Assembly: GCA_958295905.1 (NCBI GenBank)
Contig: OY282382.1
Coordinates: 4,134,910 to 4,198,909 of the forward strand
Origin: an uncultured Vicinamibacterales bacterium
GTDB taxonomy: Bacteria; Acidobacteriota; Vicinamibacteria; Vicinamibacterales; UBA8438
Length of the DNA: 64,000 bases
Direction of reading: 5' to 3'
The translations under genes were made by a program, and so were the position numbers. The notes beneath the pieces are model-generated. The model saw only the letters and a program-made list of their open reading frames with translations. It searched no databases and was not told the DNA's origin. Positions within the stretch are counted from its first letter, which is position 1, and each line of letters starts with the position of its first letter. Shown here piece by piece: positions 796 to 45,416 of the stretch.

Positions 796-1203
796 CTACC
801 CGCCGCCCCCGGTGCGGCGCGGGGTTGCGCCACGGGCTGGTACCCGGCGTCGAGAGGCGGACCACGCGCGCCAGTACAGAAGGACGCTCACGAGGAGCAG
901 CGCCCCGCCGAGGGCGGCCTGCATGCCCCGGGTCAATCCCGCCGGATAGATCGCCGCCGCGACGTAGTGCTCGATGAAGCCGCTCTCGTAGCCCGATGCC
1001 CCCGCCTGCCGCCGGAGGCGGACCTCGAGCGGGGTGAGCGGACAGACGGCCCCGGACCACGCGATGCCGACGCCCCACACGACCGCGGGCAGATGCAGCC
1101 ACGCGAGACGCGGGAACCGCCGAATCAGCAGCGCGCCGGCGGCCGCGAACAGGATGAACCCGGCGTGCGCCAGCAGGACGAGGTCGGCAAGAGCGCCGTA
1201 CAT
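796..1203 (-). CDS. DUF2784-like small integral membrane protein
   Basis: ORF 796..1314(-). I chose the internal ATG at 1203 (MYGALADLVLLAHAGFILFAAAG...). The product has several hydrophobic helices and the upstream 37 codons are R/G-rich filler. Confidence 0.6.
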   Translation of the reverse strand: MYGALADLVLLAHAGFILFAAAGALLIRRFPRLAWLHLPAVVWGVGIAWSGAVCPLTPLEVRLRRQAGASGYESGFIEHYVAAAIYPAGLTRGMQAALGGALLLVSVLLYWRAWSASRRRVPARGATPRRTGGGG

Positions 1204-1327
1204 CGGACTATCCCGCGCCCGTGCGCGCCGGGCCGCGGGACCGGCCCGCCGTTGTCTCGTCCCGCGCCCCGTGTAGAATAGGCCCATTCCCCGGCCGTCG
1301 CCCCGTCCTGTCACGAGGTGTCATCTG

Positions 1328-3013
<1,686 letters not shown>

Positions 3014-3068
3014 ACGCACCACGCGGAGCAGGGATGGACGCAACGCGGGACATCGACGCGGGCACGGC

Positions 3069-3335
3069 ATGACGGGGAACCCGGGCTGGTTCGCACGGCT
3101 GCAGGAACTGCTGGACGAGTTCTACGCGGCGCCGTATCGGGGGGCCCTGGCGCGCGCCCGGCGGGACGAGGACGACCTGTTCATGCTCTTCGTCTTCGCC
3201 GAACTCATGGGGGTGCCGAACCCCGCGGCGTACTACACGCTCGAGCTGCAGCCGGTGCTGCTCGAACGCTTTCACGACTGGCATCGCCGGCAGGGGTTGG
3301 ACCACTCTCCCCTCGACGGCTTCCGCTGCTGTTAG
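3069..3335 (+). CDS. small (88 aa) conserved protein ending in Cys-Cys-stop; resembles the family I recall being named cory-CC-star, which sits next to cstA and an ArsA-like ATPase
   Basis: ORF 3069..3335 starts with ATG and ends ...LDGFRCC-TAG. It lies between cstA and the ArsA-type ATPase. The family name is from memory only. Confidence 0.65.
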   Translation: MTGNPGWFARLQELLDEFYAAPYRGALARARRDEDDLFMLFVFAELMGVPNPAAYYTLELQPVLLERFHDWHRRQGLDHSPLDGFRCC

Positions 3336-3377
3336 CCAGCGCGAGCCGTCCCGGAGACATCACGCGGGAGCGCCGCC

Positions 3378-4409
3378 CTGCTCGATCACGTCCTGAACCG
3401 CCCCCTCCTCTTCGTCGGCGGCAAGGGCGGCGTCGGCAAGACGACGACGGCGGCCGCCCTCGGGCTCGCCGCCGCCGCCCGCGGCCGGCGGTGCCTGCTC
3501 GTCTCGACCGACCCGGCCCACTCGCTGGCCGACCTCTTCGGCCGCCCCGTCGGCGACCGGGACACCGCCATCGCCGACTCGTTGTGGGCGCTGGAGATCG
3601 ACCCCGACCGGCAGGCCGACGCGCACGTGCGGACCGTCAAGAACCGCATGAAGCGGCTCGTGCACCCCCGCCTGTTCGACGAGATCGACCGGCAGCTCGA
3701 TCTGGCGCGGATGGCCCCCGGCACGATGGAGGCGGCGCTGCTCGAACGCGTCGCCGAGATCATGACGCGGGCCGGACGCGACTACGACCGGGTCATCTTC
3801 GATACCGCGCCGACCGGGCACACCGTCCGGCTCCTGTCGCTGCCGGACATCATGGCGGCGTGGACCGACGGGCTGCTCGGCCACCGCGAACGGTCGGCGC
3901 GGCTCGGCGCCGCCCTCCGGCATCTGGGCGGGGGACGCGTCAAGGGCGACGAGCTGTCGAGGCTCGAGAGCGCCGCCGACCACGAACCGGGCAGCCGGGA
4001 TGCGCAGCTCGACGACCTCCTGCAGGCGCGGCGGCGGAAGTTCATTCACGCCCGCGGGCAGCTCCTCGATCACGCGCAGACCGCCTTCATCTCCGTGCTG
4101 AATCCGGACCGGCTCTCGGTGCTCGAGACGGCCAGGGCGCACGAAGTCCTGCGCCGGTTCTCGATACCGGTGACCGCGGTGGTGGTGAACCGGGTGCTGC
4201 CGGAAGACGCCGACGGCGCGTTTCTCGCCGCCCGGCGCGAGCAGGAAGCCCGCTACCTGGCGAAGATCGACCGGGTGTTCGCCGGGATACCGCAGGTGCG
4301 CACTCCCCTGCTGCCCGACGACGTCCACGACCTCGACACCCTTCGCGCGCTGGGCCGGCGCATCACCGGCGACGAAACCCGGCCGGACCCTCCGCCGCAC
4401 CCTGGGTAG
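3378..4409 (+). CDS. ArsA/GET3-family P-loop ATPase (single-domain); start codon uncertain (CTG 3378 proposed)
   Basis: The frame is open from 3336. Walker A LFVGGKGGVGKTTTAAALG starts at about 3408, and the signature FDTAPTGHTVRLLSLP is present. The track ORF (ATG 3582) would lack the P-loop. There is no ATG, GTG or TTG between TAG 3333-3335 and the P-loop. GGGAG lies 7 nt before CTG 3378. Confidence 0.8.
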   Translation: MLDHVLNRPLLFVGGKGGVGKTTTAAALGLAAAARGRRCLLVSTDPAHSLADLFGRPVGDRDTAIADSLWALEIDPDRQADAHVRTVKNRMKRLVHPRLFDEIDRQLDLARMAPGTMEAALLERVAEIMTRAGRDYDRVIFDTAPTGHTVRLLSLPDIMAAWTDGLLGHRERSARLGAALRHLGGGRVKGDELSRLESAADHEPGSRDAQLDDLLQARRRKFIHARGQLLDHAQTAFISVLNPDRLSVLETARAHEVLRRFSIPVTAVVVNRVLPEDADGAFLAARREQEARYLAKIDRVFAGIPQVRTPLLPDDVHDLDTLRALGRRITGDETRPDPPPHPG

Positions 4410-4498
4410 CGGGCAGGCGAGCCCTCTGCGCGCTGCAAACGGCCCGCCCTGCCCGTCATTGGCCTTGATCACACCCGGCGTCGGCCTGCCGGCTCCGG

Positions 4499-4600
4499 GT
4501 CAGCGCCCTCCCGAGGACGTTGCGGGAAGTTGATCGCCGTGTCGGTGACGTCGAGGTTGAGGGGGCTCCGCGTCAGCGCCCTCCCGAGGACGTTGCGGGA
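4499..4600. repeat. 29-bp perfect direct repeat (4499-4527 and 4572-4600), period 73 bp
   Basis: GTCAGCGCCCTCCCGAGGACGTTGCGGGA occurs twice. The second copy contains the stop codon (TCA 4573-4575 on plus) and the last codons of CDS 4573..6483. Confidence 0.9.
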
Positions 4601-6483
4601 GACGGCGCCGGAAACGGATACCCGGGCGGCCCGTAGGTATAGAACGCCCCCAGGGAGTCGATCTCGTCCATGTCGGGATACAGCACCCCGAAGGCGGGCG
4701 CCTCGCGGCTGCCCCGCGGCGAGTACCAGACGGCGCCGTCTCCGGTGATCTGGATCTTGGGCGAGTCGGCGTGCCGCTGCGGCTTGGGATAGAACGTGAA
4801 CTTCTCGGCGCGCGGGTCGAACTTCCAGAGCGAGGCGCCGTACTCGCCGTCGGTCCGCTGGCCCACGTCGGCCGCCCAGATGTTGTCGTCGGGGTCGGCG
4901 GCGACGTCGTACGGCTCCGCGTTCTGCTGCGGGATCGTCCACTCGGTCATCTTGCCGGTGGCCTGGTCCAGCTTGACCAGCTTTCCGGCCCGCCTGCCGG
5001 CGGAGTAGATGCCCCACCAGATGTTGTTCTCGGAATCGACGTTCAACCGCCGCGTGTGCCCCGGGTAGGTGGGAGCCGTGAACTCCGTCCACGAGTTGTT
5101 GGACGTGTCGAACTTGACGATCTTGCCGCCGCTCCAGAGGGCGATCCAGATGTTGTCGTTGCGGTCGGCCACGACGCCGTAGGGGATGGCGTGCGGGGTC
5201 GGGATGCGGAACACCGACACCTCCCCGGTGGCCCGGTCCCACTTGCTCAGGGCCCCGCCCATGATCCACCCGACGTAGATGTTGCCCTTCGAATCCATCG
5301 CCAGCGACTGCATGAACTTCGTCGGGTTGCGCACCACGTCGTCGGGGTCCATCGGAATCTGGTGCTCGAACTCCTCGGTCTCGGGATTGAACCCCAGGAG
5401 CCGCTTCTCCTTGGCCCCGGTGCGGCCCCGGTGCTCCGGCAGCCAGATGAGGCCGGACGGATCGATGAGAATCTCGTGGTTGCCGTTGCGGGGATCGGGA
5501 TAGAGGTACTCCCACTGCCCGCCGGTGCGGGGGTCCAGCTTGACGAGCCGGTGCGGAACGCCGCGGTCGACCAGCCAGACGTTGCCGTCCGCGTCGAAGC
5601 GCGGGTCCTGGCCGTAGCGGGCGACCCGGTCCCGGGCCCAGCGGGGATCGTTGACGCCTTCACCGGGTCCGTCCTTGGCGAGGTAGTACTCGATGTACAT
5701 CGCCTTGCCGAGGGCCTCTTCGTCGACCGGCGTCTGCTGCTCGATGCGCACGCGCCGGCGCTTGCTGTCGGGCCCGAAGTTCTCGGCGGCATACGCCAGC
5801 AGGTCGTCCCGGTCCTGCCGGCCGAAGCGGAACATCGACGCCCGGAACGAGAGCAGGCCCTGCGCGTACCGGGTGGGATCCTGCTCCCCGAGGGTGCTGC
5901 CGACCATGTGGTCGATCCAGGTCATCCACTGGCGTTCGGTTCCCGGACGCGAGGGGAAGAAGTTCTCGCCGTGGCACACCATGCAGACCTGCTCGGCGAC
6001 CGCCCGGCCGGGCCCCGGCGGGTAGATCTCGTCGTAGCCCGCGTACTCGAACGCGCCGGCCGCGCCGCTCTCCATCGCGGTCCGGCCGGCCGGGATGACG
6101 AGCGGGGGCGCGTCGCCCGAGAGCGCGCCCAGCGCCAGATCGATCTCCGCCGCGTCGCCGGCGCCCACCGTCACCGTCCGGACATCCGACTCGAGGCGCT
6201 TCGTGCTGGCGCTCACCTCGTAGGTGCCCGGAAACAGGGCTACGGCCCGGTAGCGCCCCGCGTTCGTGTACACCATGTGCACGATCCCCCGGTCGACGTT
6301 GCGAACGTAGACCTGCGCCGCCGTGAACGGCTGGGAGGCCGTCACGGTCCCCGACAGGCTTGCGGTTCCCGGCACCTCCGCCTGCAGACCGATCCCGGTC
6401 AGGGCGAGGACCGGCGCGAACAGCGCCACGGCCAACCGCCGGGCACGATATCGGCCCGCGCCACGCATTGTCGAAAGCTCCAT
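4573..6483 (-). CDS. secreted multidomain protein: carboxypeptidase-regulatory-like Ig domain + c-type heme site + Vgb/NHL-like beta-propeller
   Basis: 636 aa. Signal peptide RRLAVALFAPVLALTGIGLQA. N-terminal region GTVT...ARVYV-like. One CxxCH motif (CMVCH). C-terminal repeated D.(G/D)N(I/V)W(F/I/V/L) blades (DGNVWLV, KGNIYVG, NDNIWIA, ENNIWWG, DDNIWAA). Confidence 0.8.
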   Translation of the reverse strand: MELSTMRGAGRYRARRLAVALFAPVLALTGIGLQAEVPGTASLSGTVTASQPFTAAQVYVRNVDRGIVHMVYTNAGRYRAVALFPGTYEVSASTKRLESDVRTVTVGAGDAAEIDLALGALSGDAPPLVIPAGRTAMESGAAGAFEYAGYDEIYPPGPGRAVAEQVCMVCHGENFFPSRPGTERQWMTWIDHMVGSTLGEQDPTRYAQGLLSFRASMFRFGRQDRDDLLAYAAENFGPDSKRRRVRIEQQTPVDEEALGKAMYIEYYLAKDGPGEGVNDPRWARDRVARYGQDPRFDADGNVWLVDRGVPHRLVKLDPRTGGQWEYLYPDPRNGNHEILIDPSGLIWLPEHRGRTGAKEKRLLGFNPETEEFEHQIPMDPDDVVRNPTKFMQSLAMDSKGNIYVGWIMGGALSKWDRATGEVSVFRIPTPHAIPYGVVADRNDNIWIALWSGGKIVKFDTSNNSWTEFTAPTYPGHTRRLNVDSENNIWWGIYSAGRRAGKLVKLDQATGKMTEWTIPQQNAEPYDVAADPDDNIWAADVGQRTDGEYGASLWKFDPRAEKFTFYPKPQRHADSPKIQITGDGAVWYSPRGSREAPAFGVLYPDMDEIDSLGAFYTYGPPGYPFPAPSPATSSGGR

Positions 6484-42070: not shown

Positions 42071-44161
42071 TTATCGGACTCGAGCCCCGGGGGGAGCGGC
42101 ATCCGGGTTGTCGACGCCCAGCAGCACCGGCTGACCGTCCGGATCGGTCGCAGCAAGAATCATGCCGTTCGACTCGACCCCCATCAACCTGGCCTTCTCG
42201 AGGTTGGCGACAATCACCACCGAACGCCCCACCAAGGTCTCGGGGGCGTAGGCGCGCGCGATCCCCGCGACGAGCGTGCGCTCGCCGCTTCCGTCGTCCA
42301 CCGTCACCTTCAGCAGCTTCCTGGACTTCGGAATCACCTCGGCCACGAGCACCCTGGCCACCTGCAGCCGCACCTTCATGAAGTCGTCGAACGAGATGCG
42401 CGGCTCCGGGGGGGGCGCCGGCGCGGCGGGTGCGGGCGCGGGAGGGGCTGCCGCCGGGCCGGGGTCGGTCCCGCCGGCGGGCGGCGCGGACGGGGTGCCG
42501 TCCCGCGGCCCCCCCACGCGCCGCGAACCCGGGTCGCGCTCTACCGGCAGCGGCGCCGTGGTCGGTATGTCGTCTGTCATCGTCGTCCCTGATCCCTTCT
42601 CCGCGGCAACCCCGGGCGCACCGGCGGCGATCCCGCCGATGGAACCACCCGCCTCGAGCCGCGGCCAGAGCGGCGGTCCCTGGACGACATGCCGCCCGCC
42701 CCCGGACCACGCCGCATCCGCATCCAGCCGACTCTCGGCAATCGGCCTCGTCTGGCCCATCCGGCGCCAAATCTCCGCGCAGGACGAGGGCATTGCCGGC
42801 CACAGCAGCAGCGCCGCAATCCGCACCGCCTCCACCATCTCGAACAGCGCCTGGTCGAGCTCGCGGCGGCGGTCGGCGCTCTTGGCCAGCGCCCACGGCT
42901 CGGACCGGGTGATGAACTCGTTGGTGGCGTCGATCAGGTCGAACGCCGCCGCCATCCCCGCGTGCAGCGCGTAGGCGTCGAGCGCCGCGCGGTACCGCCG
43001 CACCACGTCGGCCGCGACGTCCGCCAGACGCGGCGCCGCGCCGGGCGCCGGAGCCACCCGCCCCCCGCGGTACTTGTGCGCCATCGCCGTGACGCGACTC
43101 ACCAAGTTGCCGAAGTTGTTCGCGAGGTCCGCGTTGTAACGCTCGTCGAAGCGTTCCCAGGTGAAATCGCCGTCCTGGCCGTACACGATCTCCTTGACGA
43201 GATACAGGCGCAGCGGATCGGGGCCCAGCCGATCCGCCGCATCGAGCGGATCGACGTTGGTGCCGAGGGACTTGCTCATGCGCCGGCCCTGCCAGTTCAC
43301 CCATCCGTGGCCGAATACGCGCCTCGGCGGCGCGATCCCCGCGCTCATGAGCATGGCCGGCCACACCACGGCGTGGAAACGGGTGATGTCCTTCCCCACC
43401 ACGTGCACGTCGGCCGGCCACCAGGTGGCGAACTGCTCCTCGTCGCTGCCGTACCCGACCGCAGCCATGTAGTTGGTGAGGGCGTCGAACCAGACGTAGA
43501 CCACGTTCGACGGGTCGAACGGCAGCGGAATGCCCCAGCGCTGTCCCGTGCGGCTGACGGAGATGTCCTCGAGGCCGCGTTCCAGCAGCCGGAGCATCTC
43601 GTTGCGCCGGACCTCGGGCTGCACGAACGTCGGATGCGCCGCGTAGTGCTCCAGCAACCGGTCCCGATAGCGGGACAGGCGAAAAAAGTGGTTCTTCTCC
43701 TTGACCCAGTCCGGCTTGCTGCGGTGCACCGGACACTCGCCGTCGACGAGGTCCCGGTCCTGCTTGAACGCCTCGCAGGAGACGCAGTACCACCCCTCGT
43801 ACTCGCCTTCGTACAGGTCGCCGGCGGCGGCGATGCGCTCGACCAGGGTCGTGACCGCCACCCGGTGGCGCGCTTCGGTGGTCCGGATGAAATCGTCGAA
43901 CGACACGTCGAGCTTCGCCCAGACCTCGCGGAACACCGCCTCCATCCGGTCGCAGAAGACCCGCGGGTCGAGCCCGAGCTCGGTCGCGCGCTGGAAGACG
44001 TTCTGCGAGTGCTCGTCGTTGCCCATGACGAACCGCGTCGGGTGGCCGCGCAGCCGGCGATAGCGGGCGATGACGTCGGCCGTCACCTTCTCGTAGGCCG
44101 TGCCCAAATGGGGCCGGCTGTTGACGTAGTCGATCGCGGTGGTCAGGTAGAAACGGTTCAT
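42071..44161 (-). CDS. metG: methionine--tRNA ligase with P/A-rich linker and C-terminal tRNA-binding domain
   Basis: MNRFYLTTAIDYVNSRPHLGTAYE (HIGH-type region), KMSKSLGN, and a C-terminal KVRLQVARV...EKARLMGVESNGMILAA domain. Confidence 0.97.
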   Translation of the reverse strand: MNRFYLTTAIDYVNSRPHLGTAYEKVTADVIARYRRLRGHPTRFVMGNDEHSQNVFQRATELGLDPRVFCDRMEAVFREVWAKLDVSFDDFIRTTEARHRVAVTTLVERIAAAGDLYEGEYEGWYCVSCEAFKQDRDLVDGECPVHRSKPDWVKEKNHFFRLSRYRDRLLEHYAAHPTFVQPEVRRNEMLRLLERGLEDISVSRTGQRWGIPLPFDPSNVVYVWFDALTNYMAAVGYGSDEEQFATWWPADVHVVGKDITRFHAVVWPAMLMSAGIAPPRRVFGHGWVNWQGRRMSKSLGTNVDPLDAADRLGPDPLRLYLVKEIVYGQDGDFTWERFDERYNADLANNFGNLVSRVTAMAHKYRGGRVAPAPGAAPRLADVAADVVRRYRAALDAYALHAGMAAAFDLIDATNEFITRSEPWALAKSADRRRELDQALFEMVEAVRIAALLLWPAMPSSCAEIWRRMGQTRPIAESRLDADAAWSGGGRHVVQGPPLWPRLEAGGSIGGIAAGAPGVAAEKGSGTTMTDDIPTTAPLPVERDPGSRRVGGPRDGTPSAPPAGGTDPGPAAAPPAPAPAAPAPPPEPRISFDDFMKVRLQVARVLVAEVIPKSRKLLKVTVDDGSGERTLVAGIARAYAPETLVGRSVVIVANLEKARLMGVESNGMILAATDPDGQPVLLGVDNPDAAPPGARVR

Positions 44162-44204
44162 CTTCCTTGCCTTCGACGCGCTGCCCCCGACGCCGGCGCG
44201 CCGC

Positions 44205-45416
44205 TCACCGGGCGCCCGGCCGCGCCGCCAGTCCGGCGTCGCGCGACGCCTGAACGGCGGCCGCGTGAACCTCCTTCACCGATACGCGGTGCGCGCGGGC
44301 CGCGCGGGCGCAGTCCTCGAACTCGGGCGACACGTTGACCACCGCGGCGCCGCGCCGCGCCACCTTGCATCGTATCTCGCCGTAGCCGGTCGGCACCGGC
44401 ACGATCTCCCGCGCCAGCACCTCCCGGGTCACCTCGCCGTAGCGGAGTCCGATGGTGCTCGTCTCCCGGAACAGGGTGGCGCAGACCGCCTCGCGGCGTC
44501 CCGGCGGCACGAGCACCGTCACCTGCGTACCCGGACGGTTCTTCTTCATCTGCACCGGCGTATAGAACACGTCGACCGCCCCCGCATCCTGGAGATGCTC
44601 CCGGAGCACCCCGAAGATCTGGGGGTTCATGTCGTCGATCTCGCAGTGGACGGCGGCCACCCGTTCCTCGGGGGCGCCCTCCGCCGCCTCGCCGAGGAGC
44701 ACCCGCAGGACGTTGGGATGGCCCCGGGGGTCGCGCGACCCGGCGCCGTACCCGATCCGCTGGATGCGCATCGGCGGCAACGGTCCGTACTCAACCGCGA
44801 ACTCCGACACGAGCAGGGCGCCGGTCGGGGTCAGGAGCTCGCCGCCCGGCGCCCCCGCGTACACCGGGGCGCCGGCGATCAACGCCGCCGTCGCCGGCGC
44901 CGGCACCGGCAGGGTCCCGTGCGCGCACGTGACGGCGCCGTTCCCCACGTTCACGGCGGAGGCGACGATCCGCTCGGCTCCGAACCACTCCAGCGCGAAG
45001 ACCCCGCCGACGATGTCGATGATCGAGTCGAGGGCCCCCACCTCGTGCAGGTGCACCTTCTCCACCGGCATCCGGTGTATCGCGGCCTCGGTCTCGGCCA
45101 AGCGCCGAAACAACGCGGCCGCCCGCGCCCGGGAGCCATCGGCCAACGACGATCGTTCCACCCGCTCGAGAATCCCGGGAAGATGGCGGTGGGGATGGCC
45201 GCCGCCGTCACCGGCGGTCCCGGTCACCGTGAACTTCGTGGCTCCCACGCCGGACCGGCTCACCGGCTCGGCCGAAACGGTGCACTCGTCGCCGAGGGCG
45301 AGGCTCCCCAACGCCTCCTGGAGACGCTCGAAGGGCAGGCCCGCATCGAGCAGGGCGCCGATCATCATGTCGCCCGATGCGCCGGAGAAGCAGTCCAGAT
45401 AGAGAATCCGCCCCAT
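44205..45416 (-). CDS. larC: nickel-pincer cofactor biosynthesis protein LarC (DUF111)
   Basis: MGRILYLDCFSGASGDMMIGALLDAG, HEVGALDSIIDIVG. Confidence 0.9.
   Translation of the reverse strand: MGRILYLDCFSGASGDMMIGALLDAGLPFERLQEALGSLALGDECTVSAEPVSRSGVGATKFTVTGTAGDGGGHPHRHLPGILERVERSSLADGSRARAAALFRRLAETEAAIHRMPVEKVHLHEVGALDSIIDIVGGVFALEWFGAERIVASAVNVGNGAVTCAHGTLPVPAPATAALIAGAPVYAGAPGGELLTPTGALLVSEFAVEYGPLPPMRIQRIGYGAGSRDPRGHPNVLRVLLGEAAEGAPEERVAAVHCEIDDMNPQIFGVLREHLQDAGAVDVFYTPVQMKKNRPGTQVTVLVPPGRREAVCATLFRETSTIGLRYGEVTREVLAREIVPVPTGYGEIRCKVARRGAAVVNVSPEFEDCARAARAHRVSVKEVHAAAVQASRDAGLAARPGAR

Follow-up and report, generated by a model that had tools for sequence, protein, structure and literature searches.

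A conserved CTG as the probable start codon of a Get3/ArsA-family ATPase gene in the Vicinamibacterales

A 64,000-nucleotide stretch of DNA from an uncultured Vicinamibacterales bacterium (Acidobacteriota; contig OY282382.1, positions 4,134,910 to 4,198,909 of the forward strand; below, the window) carries, behind a cstA-family gene and a gene for a small cory-CC-star protein (below, CC-star), a gene for a single-domain ATPase of the Get3/TRC40/ArsA family that has no canonical start codon ahead of its P-loop. Based on comparison with related loci, we propose that translation of this ATPase very likely starts at CTG 3378, a codon conserved throughout the clade of the window and placed behind a strong Shine-Dalgarno (SD) sequence. 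Initiation at this CTG was the first of three explanations offered in a preliminary description of the region, the others being readthrough of the CC-star TAG and a base-call error, and it is the one favoured by conservation in the clade, by the SD, by the ATG or GTG of outgroup loci and by purifying selection on the sequence that follows. The features on which the argument turns are these:

3069 to 3335, + strand: cory-CC-star small protein gene (NF041419), 88 residues ending in ...DGFRCC, with its stop codon TAG at 3333-3335
3336 to 3377, + strand: intergenic spacer between the CC-star stop and the proposed ATPase start, predicted to be untranslated, with a hypervariable 5' part and a 3' part formed by the conserved ribosome-binding block
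3366 to 3370, + strand: SD sequence GGGAG, 7 nt 5' of the CTG, identified by conservation and duplex energy
3378 to 3380, + strand: CTG, proposed initiation codon to be read as formylmethionine (fMet), identified by clade conservation and outgroup alignment
3378 to 4409, + strand: coding sequence of the Get3/TRC40/ArsA-family single-domain ATPase as re-annotated here, 343 residues, stop codon TAG at 4407-4409
3417 to 3443, + strand: Walker A motif (P-loop) GGKGGVGKT, seen in the translation and invariant across clade members
3582 to 3584, + strand: TTG, the first canonical in-frame start, wrongly used by open reading frame (ORF) and gene callers

The CTG codon and the sequence around it

The CC-star ORF ends in TTC CGC TGC TGT TAG, and the same frame read on past this TAG translates as PARAVPETSRGSAALLDHVLNRPLLFVGGKGGVGKTT, runs into the GGKGGVGKT motif at 3417 and remains open up to the terminal TAG. 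ATG, GTG and TTG are absent from all three frames between 3336 and 3418, which bears out the earlier observation of an ATPase gene without a canonical start, in frame behind the TAG; GGGAG and, 7 nt downstream of it, CTG 3378 are likewise where they had been placed, and the codon at 3582, formerly described as the first in-frame ATG, is a TTG. The only in-frame near-cognate codons 5' of the P-loop are CTG 3378 and CTG 3393. Canonical start-type codons make up 6.4% of the codons in the genes of the window, so that a run of 27 codons without one is unremarkable (P ~0.17); the run of 82 codons up to TTG 3582 is unusual (P ~0.004), with only 6 of 646 intragenic gaps equally long. Among the 56 ORFs of the window with high G+C at third codon positions (GC3), the ATPase ORF is the sole one with a long coding stretch ahead of its first canonical start. 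A second candidate from this leader screen, at 42071-44275 on the - strand (38 start-less codons, GC3 0.90), was rejected as an ordinary gene with SD and ATG: it starts MNRFYLTTAIDYVNSRPHLGTAY, is methionyl-tRNA-synthetase-like and has AAGGCAAGGAAG ahead of its ATG. The screen gave no second convincing non-canonical start in the window.

The Vicinamibacterales clade of the window was represented by 19 loci with 17 distinct gene sequences. To the loci from metagenome contigs a scan of genome collections added ten more species-level Vicinamibacterales genomes of the clade, including long-read chromosomes and short-read MEGAHIT metagenome-assembled genomes (MAGs), and every one of these is without a canonical start. 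A canonical start is missing in all 19 loci, barring a non-conserved GTG or TTG that lies 32 to 169 codons upstream in five of them (L007, L010, L016, L017 and L018). An alignment of orthologs had been suggested as a check on the relative frame of the two genes and on the presence of a normal ATG or GTG start; different frames were indeed seen, as described below, while a normal start is still absent from the clade. The CTG is found exactly 13 codons before GGKGG at each of the 19 loci, and GGGAG is kept at 18 of them within a spacer that is otherwise hypervariable, L013 having CGGAG instead. The block common to every clade member reads ...ACATCACGCGGGAGCGCCGCC-CTG and is shortened in L013 to CGCGGAGCGCCGCC-CTG. 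The duplex between GGGAG and the anti-SD has a calculated energy of -6.6 kcal/mol, as compared with a median of -3.1 kcal/mol for orthologs that start with ATG.

Other codons near the P-loop are not conserved in this way. CTG 3393 is CTC in L001, L002 and L004, and where other members have an ATC or ATT 9 codons before GGKGG, the window and its nearest relatives (L001-L006 and L009) have GTC. Further, an in-frame TGA precedes the CTG by 6 codons in L013, as do stops by 13 codons in L001, L011 and L015, which makes a translation start ahead of them impossible at those loci. The codon homologous to the CTG is ATG in the outgroup Vicinamibacterales loci L042, L044, L048, L084 and L088 and GTG in L022. 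At L048, L084 and L088 the sequence ATG CTC GAC GAC CTG CTG (MLDDLLAHQLVFVGG) aligns with (L)LDHVLNRPLLFVGG of the window, and the protein P0139 reads MLDHLLTGRLLFVGG at the same place. The ATPases of the CTG clade form a monophyletic group in a neighbour-joining tree, next to a sister group that alternates between GTG, CTG and ATG. Cumulatively, the gene has no canonical in-frame start before Walker A, its CTG occupies the position at which orthologs have their canonical start, a conserved SD lies at a functional spacing, and a coding signature is present from the proposed start on.

This coding signature is clear in the 68 codons from CTG 3378 to TTG 3582, over which the pairwise ratio of nonsynonymous to synonymous change (dN/dS) against clade members is 0.12-0.28 with pS of 0.19-0.29 in comparisons with more than 10 substitutions, and 0.40-0.41 in the two closest comparisons, which have 10 substitutions each. 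The remainder of the ATPase gene has a dN/dS of 0.18-0.26. None of the 17 distinct sequences has a frameshift or a stop in the 68-codon segment; frame-breaking changes in the clade are found only upstream of the CTG and never downstream of it. When the protein is started at the CTG, its residues 9-164 align with the identically numbered residues of E. coli ArsA (1f48), and the N-terminus thus has the length that is normal for the family. Coding sequence is found on the downstream side of the CTG and not on the upstream side.

These data bear on two alternatives. One is that the gene is inactivated or truncated, with translation from TTG 3582 or later yielding a protein devoid of the P-loop, or that it is a pseudogene; gene callers do report 247-275 residues from TTG 3582 or an internal ATG in most clade members. 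We consider this very improbable, because the 68 codons before TTG 3582 are under purifying selection with Walker A invariant, and because TTG 3582 is not conserved as a start, the calls in relatives beginning at differing internal Met codons. Somewhat less remote, though still improbable, is the use of another non-canonical site, be it CTG 3393, a codon outside the near-cognate class, or re-initiation by scanning 70S ribosomes after the upstream stop. CTG 3393 is in frame, the RefSeq solution for Halopseudomonas orthologs is an ATC three codons before the P-loop, and only 42 nt separate the upstream stop from the CTG in the window, and 18 nt in L013. Yet CTG 3393 is not only replaced by CTC in three relatives but also lies 22 nt from GGGAG, with no SD at a usable distance; the distance from stop to CTG ranges from 41 to ~540 nt in the clade, so that coupling is no conserved requirement; and any start nearer to the P-loop would remove part of the beta-1 strand and of the conserved LLD(E/H)(I/V)LNRP segment.

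An error of sequencing or assembly by which a canonical start was lost or the frame changed, the true genome having an ATG or GTG, deserves mention since the window comes from a metagenome-type assembly and since the related contig L005 has signs of local errors in its ATPase gene (P0144). This explanation, one of the three in the preliminary description, is refuted by the recurrence of the same junction in independent long-read and short-read assemblies, and we give it next to no probability. The exact CC-star protein with the same junction recurs on at least 21 contigs drawn from a number of independent metagenome assemblies in ENA; the 84-nt stretch from the CC-star stop to Walker A is identical in L003 and L006 and differs by one base in L005; and the CTG arrangement occurs in 17 distinct sequences that come from hifiasm/Flye-style long-read assemblies as well as from MEGAHIT short-read ones (L015, L016). 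As a separate observation, P0144 of L005 (ena:ERZ19489113:s3476.ptg003945l) has a short internal run of residues, IHGPRAAPRSRADRLHLRAESGPALV, read in another frame than IHARGQLLDHAQTAFISVLNPDRLSV of the window, and several neighbouring genes on that contig are fragmented. These anomalies are probably local assembly indels and not biology.

Initiation at CTG 3378 would, then, operate as follows. The ATPase would be made as a separate protein of 343 residues from the third gene of a cstA / CC-star / ATPase operon, with GGGAG directing initiation at the CUG, which initiator fMet-tRNA would decode as Met. The 42 nt that separate the CTG from the CC-star TAG would be untranslated and their in-frame position coincidental. 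An ATG or GTG start would have changed to CTG in the ancestor of the clade and have been retained since. By analogy with E. coli, the yield of ATPase would be well below the level reached with ATG, although the strong SD would make up for part of the difference, and low or regulated expression of the ATPase may be the consequence.

Some points weigh against this proposal. Invariance of the CTG is weak evidence if taken alone, as 4 of 17 (24%) Leu columns with a CTG majority in the same alignment are equally invariant. RNAalifold predicts a small invariant hairpin of 7 bp and -7.5 kcal/mol in which the SD would pair with the CUG region (11 distinct sequences), which might hinder or regulate initiation; no compensatory pairs or covariation were seen for it among these 11 sequences, which gives no evidence either way. 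In favour of the proposal, the median SD energy across the family is -6.6 kcal/mol at candidate near-cognate starts, -5.6 at GTG or TTG and -3.1 at ATG, as expected if a weak codon were compensated; the comparison ignores phylogeny and is partly circular outside the clade, where some near-cognate sites were picked partly by their SD. Also in its favour, CUG forms with AUA, AUC and AUU the near-cognate class that measurably initiates in E. coli, at ~1-2% of AUG (Hecht et al., 10.1101/063800), a figure that may not be that of this phylum. Finally, that ribosomes initiate at CUG 3378 itself is something we infer from the sequence.

The spacer and the supposed readthrough of the CC-star stop

Programmed readthrough of the CC-star TAG would make a CC-star/ATPase fusion the functional form of the ATPase. 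The arrangement it calls for is real: in the window and in L003, L005 and L006 the two ORFs are in frame and separated by a single TAG with no further stop, and the same in-frame, single-stop arrangement exists at 28 of the 147 distinct CC-star/ATPase junctions that we surveyed in genomes and metagenomes. Nevertheless, readthrough is refuted as a conserved mechanism by random frames, mixed stops and spacer insertions, and we regard it as extremely unlikely. The frame relation over the 147 junctions is uniform (44/49/54; chi-square p = 0.60) and within the clade it is 7/3/7. The identity of the CC-star stop varies as well, with TGA at 72, TAG at 45 and TAA at 30 of the junctions, and TAG at 14 and TGA at 3 within the clade. 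The in-frame relation is no more frequent than chance, and the emphasis that the preliminary description put on the in-frame TAG was misplaced.

The spacer points in the same direction. With the CC-star stop codon and the CTG included, it is 44, 45, 48, 50, 52, 170, 176, 177, 191, 213, 220, 224 or 544 nt long in the clade, and the corresponding distances from the CC-star stop to Walker A are 80, 81, 84, 86, 88, 206, 212, 213, 227, 249, 256, 260 and 580 nt. Its indels are not multiples of 3, and close relatives have unrelated insertions of 120-500 nt that bring in-frame stops or even an extra ORF. L001 has an in-frame TGA directly after the CC-star stop, and L013 has a complete additional ORF with ELKSDTA(K/R)QFQ repeats between CC-star and the ATPase. 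The downstream ORF is thus not kept in frame and free of stops, as the spacers of L001 and L013 document, and instead of a conserved stop identity and context followed by a protein-like linker there is a hypervariable linker. Moreover, the CC-star domain PF25952 is absent from the top 120 ATPase homologs, and the C-terminal Cys-Cys-stop that defines the CC-star family would end up inside the fusion. Readthrough, or an upstream start, would be expected to yield GSAALLDHVLNR or peptides that span the spacer. Since the frame is random and both stops and spacers vary, the in-frame TAG of the window is a coincidence of that species.

The position right behind the CC-star stop is a hotspot of insertion in its own right, at which unrelated inserts of ~120-180 nt are found in L001, L002, L004, L010, L012, L014, L016 and L017. 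The insert shared by L001, L002 and L004 opens with an inverted repeat (GTGTCACTTGAACAAATTGACAC), and that of L013, at ~500 nt, holds the small ORF with tandem ELKSDTA(K/R)QFQ repeats.

Candidate near-cognate starts in the family and public annotation

Most members of the ATPase family have an ordinary ATG or GTG 11 to 13 codons before GGKGG (positions -11 to -13, counted in codons), or a TTG or GTG at -18 that overlaps the 3' end of the CC-star gene. Near-cognate starts are a recurring minority. Outside the clade of the window, L021 has a CTG at -12 with cGGAG 7 nt upstream, L065 has a CTG at -14 behind GGGAGAGG, L024 has a CTG at -14 or -12 with a weak SD, and L091 has a CTG at -12. At L020, L057, L128/L129, L141 and L163 the spacing of the SD suits a CTG at the homologous codon, even though a canonical codon in a worse position is present.

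In Halopseudomonas the family has lost its canonical start a second time, independently and with use of the other near-cognate class. The usual ATG (MFDLL) is now AGC, CGC or ACA in four Halopseudomonas genomes (L068, L071, L079 and L075), where the only canonical start left is a GTG one codon before GGKGG; further upstream the sole candidates are ATC, ATC, ATT and ATA at -16/-17, each with a GGAG or GGGAGA at a distance of 6-8 nt on the 5' side. RefSeq lists three Halopseudomonas/Pseudomonas proteins of 326 residues that start MWVGGKGG, three codons before the P-loop (the ATC in L079). P0257, from a metagenomic relative, has a GTG start at -19.

It is conceivable that selection for very low translation, or for translation sensitive to initiation factor 3 (IF3) or stress, has repeatedly driven this ATPase family to near-cognate starts, namely CUG in the clade of the window and, probably through separate events, in the Acidobacteriota lineages of L021, L024, L065, L091, L128/L129 and L163, and AUC, AUU or AUA in Halopseudomonas, but we hold this to be rather unlikely. 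If true, it would mean translational control of the ATPase relative to CC-star and CstA across the family, as opposed to a mutation tolerated once. The near-cognate starts elsewhere in the family at least hint that the ATPase may be kept low relative to CC-star, which could offer a clue to the function of the cstA / CC-star / ATPase module.

A large subclade shows a different junction. In L026, L027, L030, L031, L046, the metagenomic L097, L101, L103, L105 and others, Walker A follows the CC-star stop by only 34 nt. A single canonical start is available there, a TTG at -18 (GTG in L031), which falls within the codons for the conserved Pro-Leu-Asp of CC-star. The CC-star and ATPase genes of this subclade overlap by ~20 nt, which suggests translational coupling.

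CTG is an allowed start codon in translation table 11. The ATPase of the window resembles the E. coli near-cognate genes infC and pcnB, which use AUU, in that a canonical start is lacking, the codon differs from AUG at one position and a good SD is needed; low-level and possibly IF3-sensitive expression would be expected by analogy. It differs from them in that its proposed start is CUG where they have AUU and in belonging to an uncultured Acidobacterium. Further, nothing like the autoregulatory logic of infC and IF3 is evident at the ATPase of the window. A closer parallel is GenBank HCQ98407.1 (336 residues), the arsenic-transporting ATPase of Acidobacteria bacterium UBA9620, which is exactly the CTG-start translation of the ortholog L021 in the sister group of the clade, so that for this one relative the CTG start is already recognised in annotation. 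As in the window, the L021 gene follows a CC-star gene and has no canonical start near the P-loop; its own CTG lies 12 codons before GGKGG. It belongs to a separate lineage, and its CTG is probably an independent change because its nearest neighbour on the tree, L019, has GTG. Most other gene calls in the L021 lineage have 372 residues and begin at a GTG 48 codons upstream.

Public annotation of the clade of the window errs in both directions. P0144, P0154, P0158 and P0163 are truncated calls of 247-275 residues that start at TTG 3582 or downstream and lack the P-loop. P0121-P0127 are extended calls of 345-418 residues that use a fortuitous upstream ATG or GTG, in some cases inside the CC-star gene in another frame. 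Exact look-up in a collection of 15 billion proteins found neither the M-initiated CTG versions of the window, L007 and L010 nor the guessed ATC/ATT/ATA (-16/-17) and GTG (-1) versions of the Halopseudomonas proteins; among the CTG versions looked up, that of L021 alone was present. Gene callers thus err across a whole clade of abundant soil Acidobacteria, and ATPases that look dead or chimeric spread through the databases; a CTG start at the conserved position would correct the truncated and the extended calls alike. It would also provide a well-supported comparative case of a CUG start kept over many species.

The locus and related modules

The window has a G+C content of 70.5%, and the genome nearest to it is a Vicinamibacterales (Acidobacteriota) MAG whose small protein is 98% identical. 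The order cstA / CC-star / ATPase is kept at all related loci. The first gene of the apparent operon is:

1328 to 3013, + strand: cstA-family gene (carbon starvation / pyruvate transporter), matching PF02554 CstA with E = 3e-133

A simple scan of 1000-4700, which gives weak evidence, found its sole promoter-like site at 1252-1279, 5' of the cstA-family gene, and neither an internal promoter nor a terminator between the genes of the locus.

The 88-residue ORF that follows scores 129.9 bits against the curated NCBIfam model NF041419, 'cory-CC-star protein' (cut-off 80), and has the C-terminal Cys-Cys before the stop, which together place it in this family. A total of 748 CC-star homologs were found. 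Homologs bear PF25952/DUF7990, and R86, C87 and C88 are invariant among 16 aligned ones. A literature search on 'cory-CC-star' proteins found no papers.

Membership of the ATPase in the TRC40/GET3/ArsA family is supported by a TIGR00345 score of 256.8 bits (cut-off 135) together with the P-loop, and by PF02374 at 227.3 bits (cut-off 24.3; E = 3.4e-67). The structures 5zme (ARSA1), 3zq6 and 3ug6 (archaeal Get3 homologs) and 1f48 match with E = 5e-60 to 2e-43, and the ATPase shares with Get3/TRC40/ArsA the GKGGVGKT P-loop and the DTAPTGHT switch II motif. It differs from the arsenical pump ATPase in its partner, CC-star next to cstA instead of arsB or arsD, and in having one domain, not two. Assignment to the ArsA pump equivalog TIGR04291 (two tandem domains, ~580 residues) was accordingly rejected: the single-domain protein of 343 residues scores 150.9 bits against a cut-off of 650.

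Considering the gene order, the locus resembles cstA-ybdD (L089 3683-3880) and btsT-yjiX-yjiA (L090 2910-6280) of E. coli K-12, in which a CstA-family transporter gene is likewise followed by one for a small protein ending in Arg-Cys-Cys-stop (YbdD ...GGARCC, YjiX ...GGMRCC). The P-loop NTPase gene yjiA lies 10 nt 3' of yjiX, in the order seen at 1328-4409 of the window. YjiA, a member of the COG0523 GTPase family, carries the annotation of a P-loop GTPase, in contrast to the Get3/ArsA ATPase of the window, and yjiA has a normal start with GGAGAG and ATG. Homology of CC-star to PF04328 (YbdD/YjiX, 'Sel_put') was considered and rejected, as CC-star has no Pfam match to it at E <= 10 whereas YjiX scores 94.9 bits; hhalign of CC-star against PF04328 gives a probability of 4%, with the RCC tail alone aligned. 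The relation between the module of the window and those of E. coli is one of analogy and not of membership, and the shared architecture gives the impression of a functional module that is convergent or very distantly related.

Ahead of the CC-star gene there is a mini-ORF of 12 codons, from ATG 3034 to the TGA at 3070-3072 (window 3025-3072), with GGAG at 3025-3028, 5 nt upstream. Its end overlaps the ATG of CC-star at 3069 as ATGA, which may couple translation of the mini-ORF to that of CC-star. Sister species instead have a CC-star of 101 residues with an N-terminal extension (MTxRDPRR...), and the mini-ORF looks like a frameshifted remnant of such an extension.

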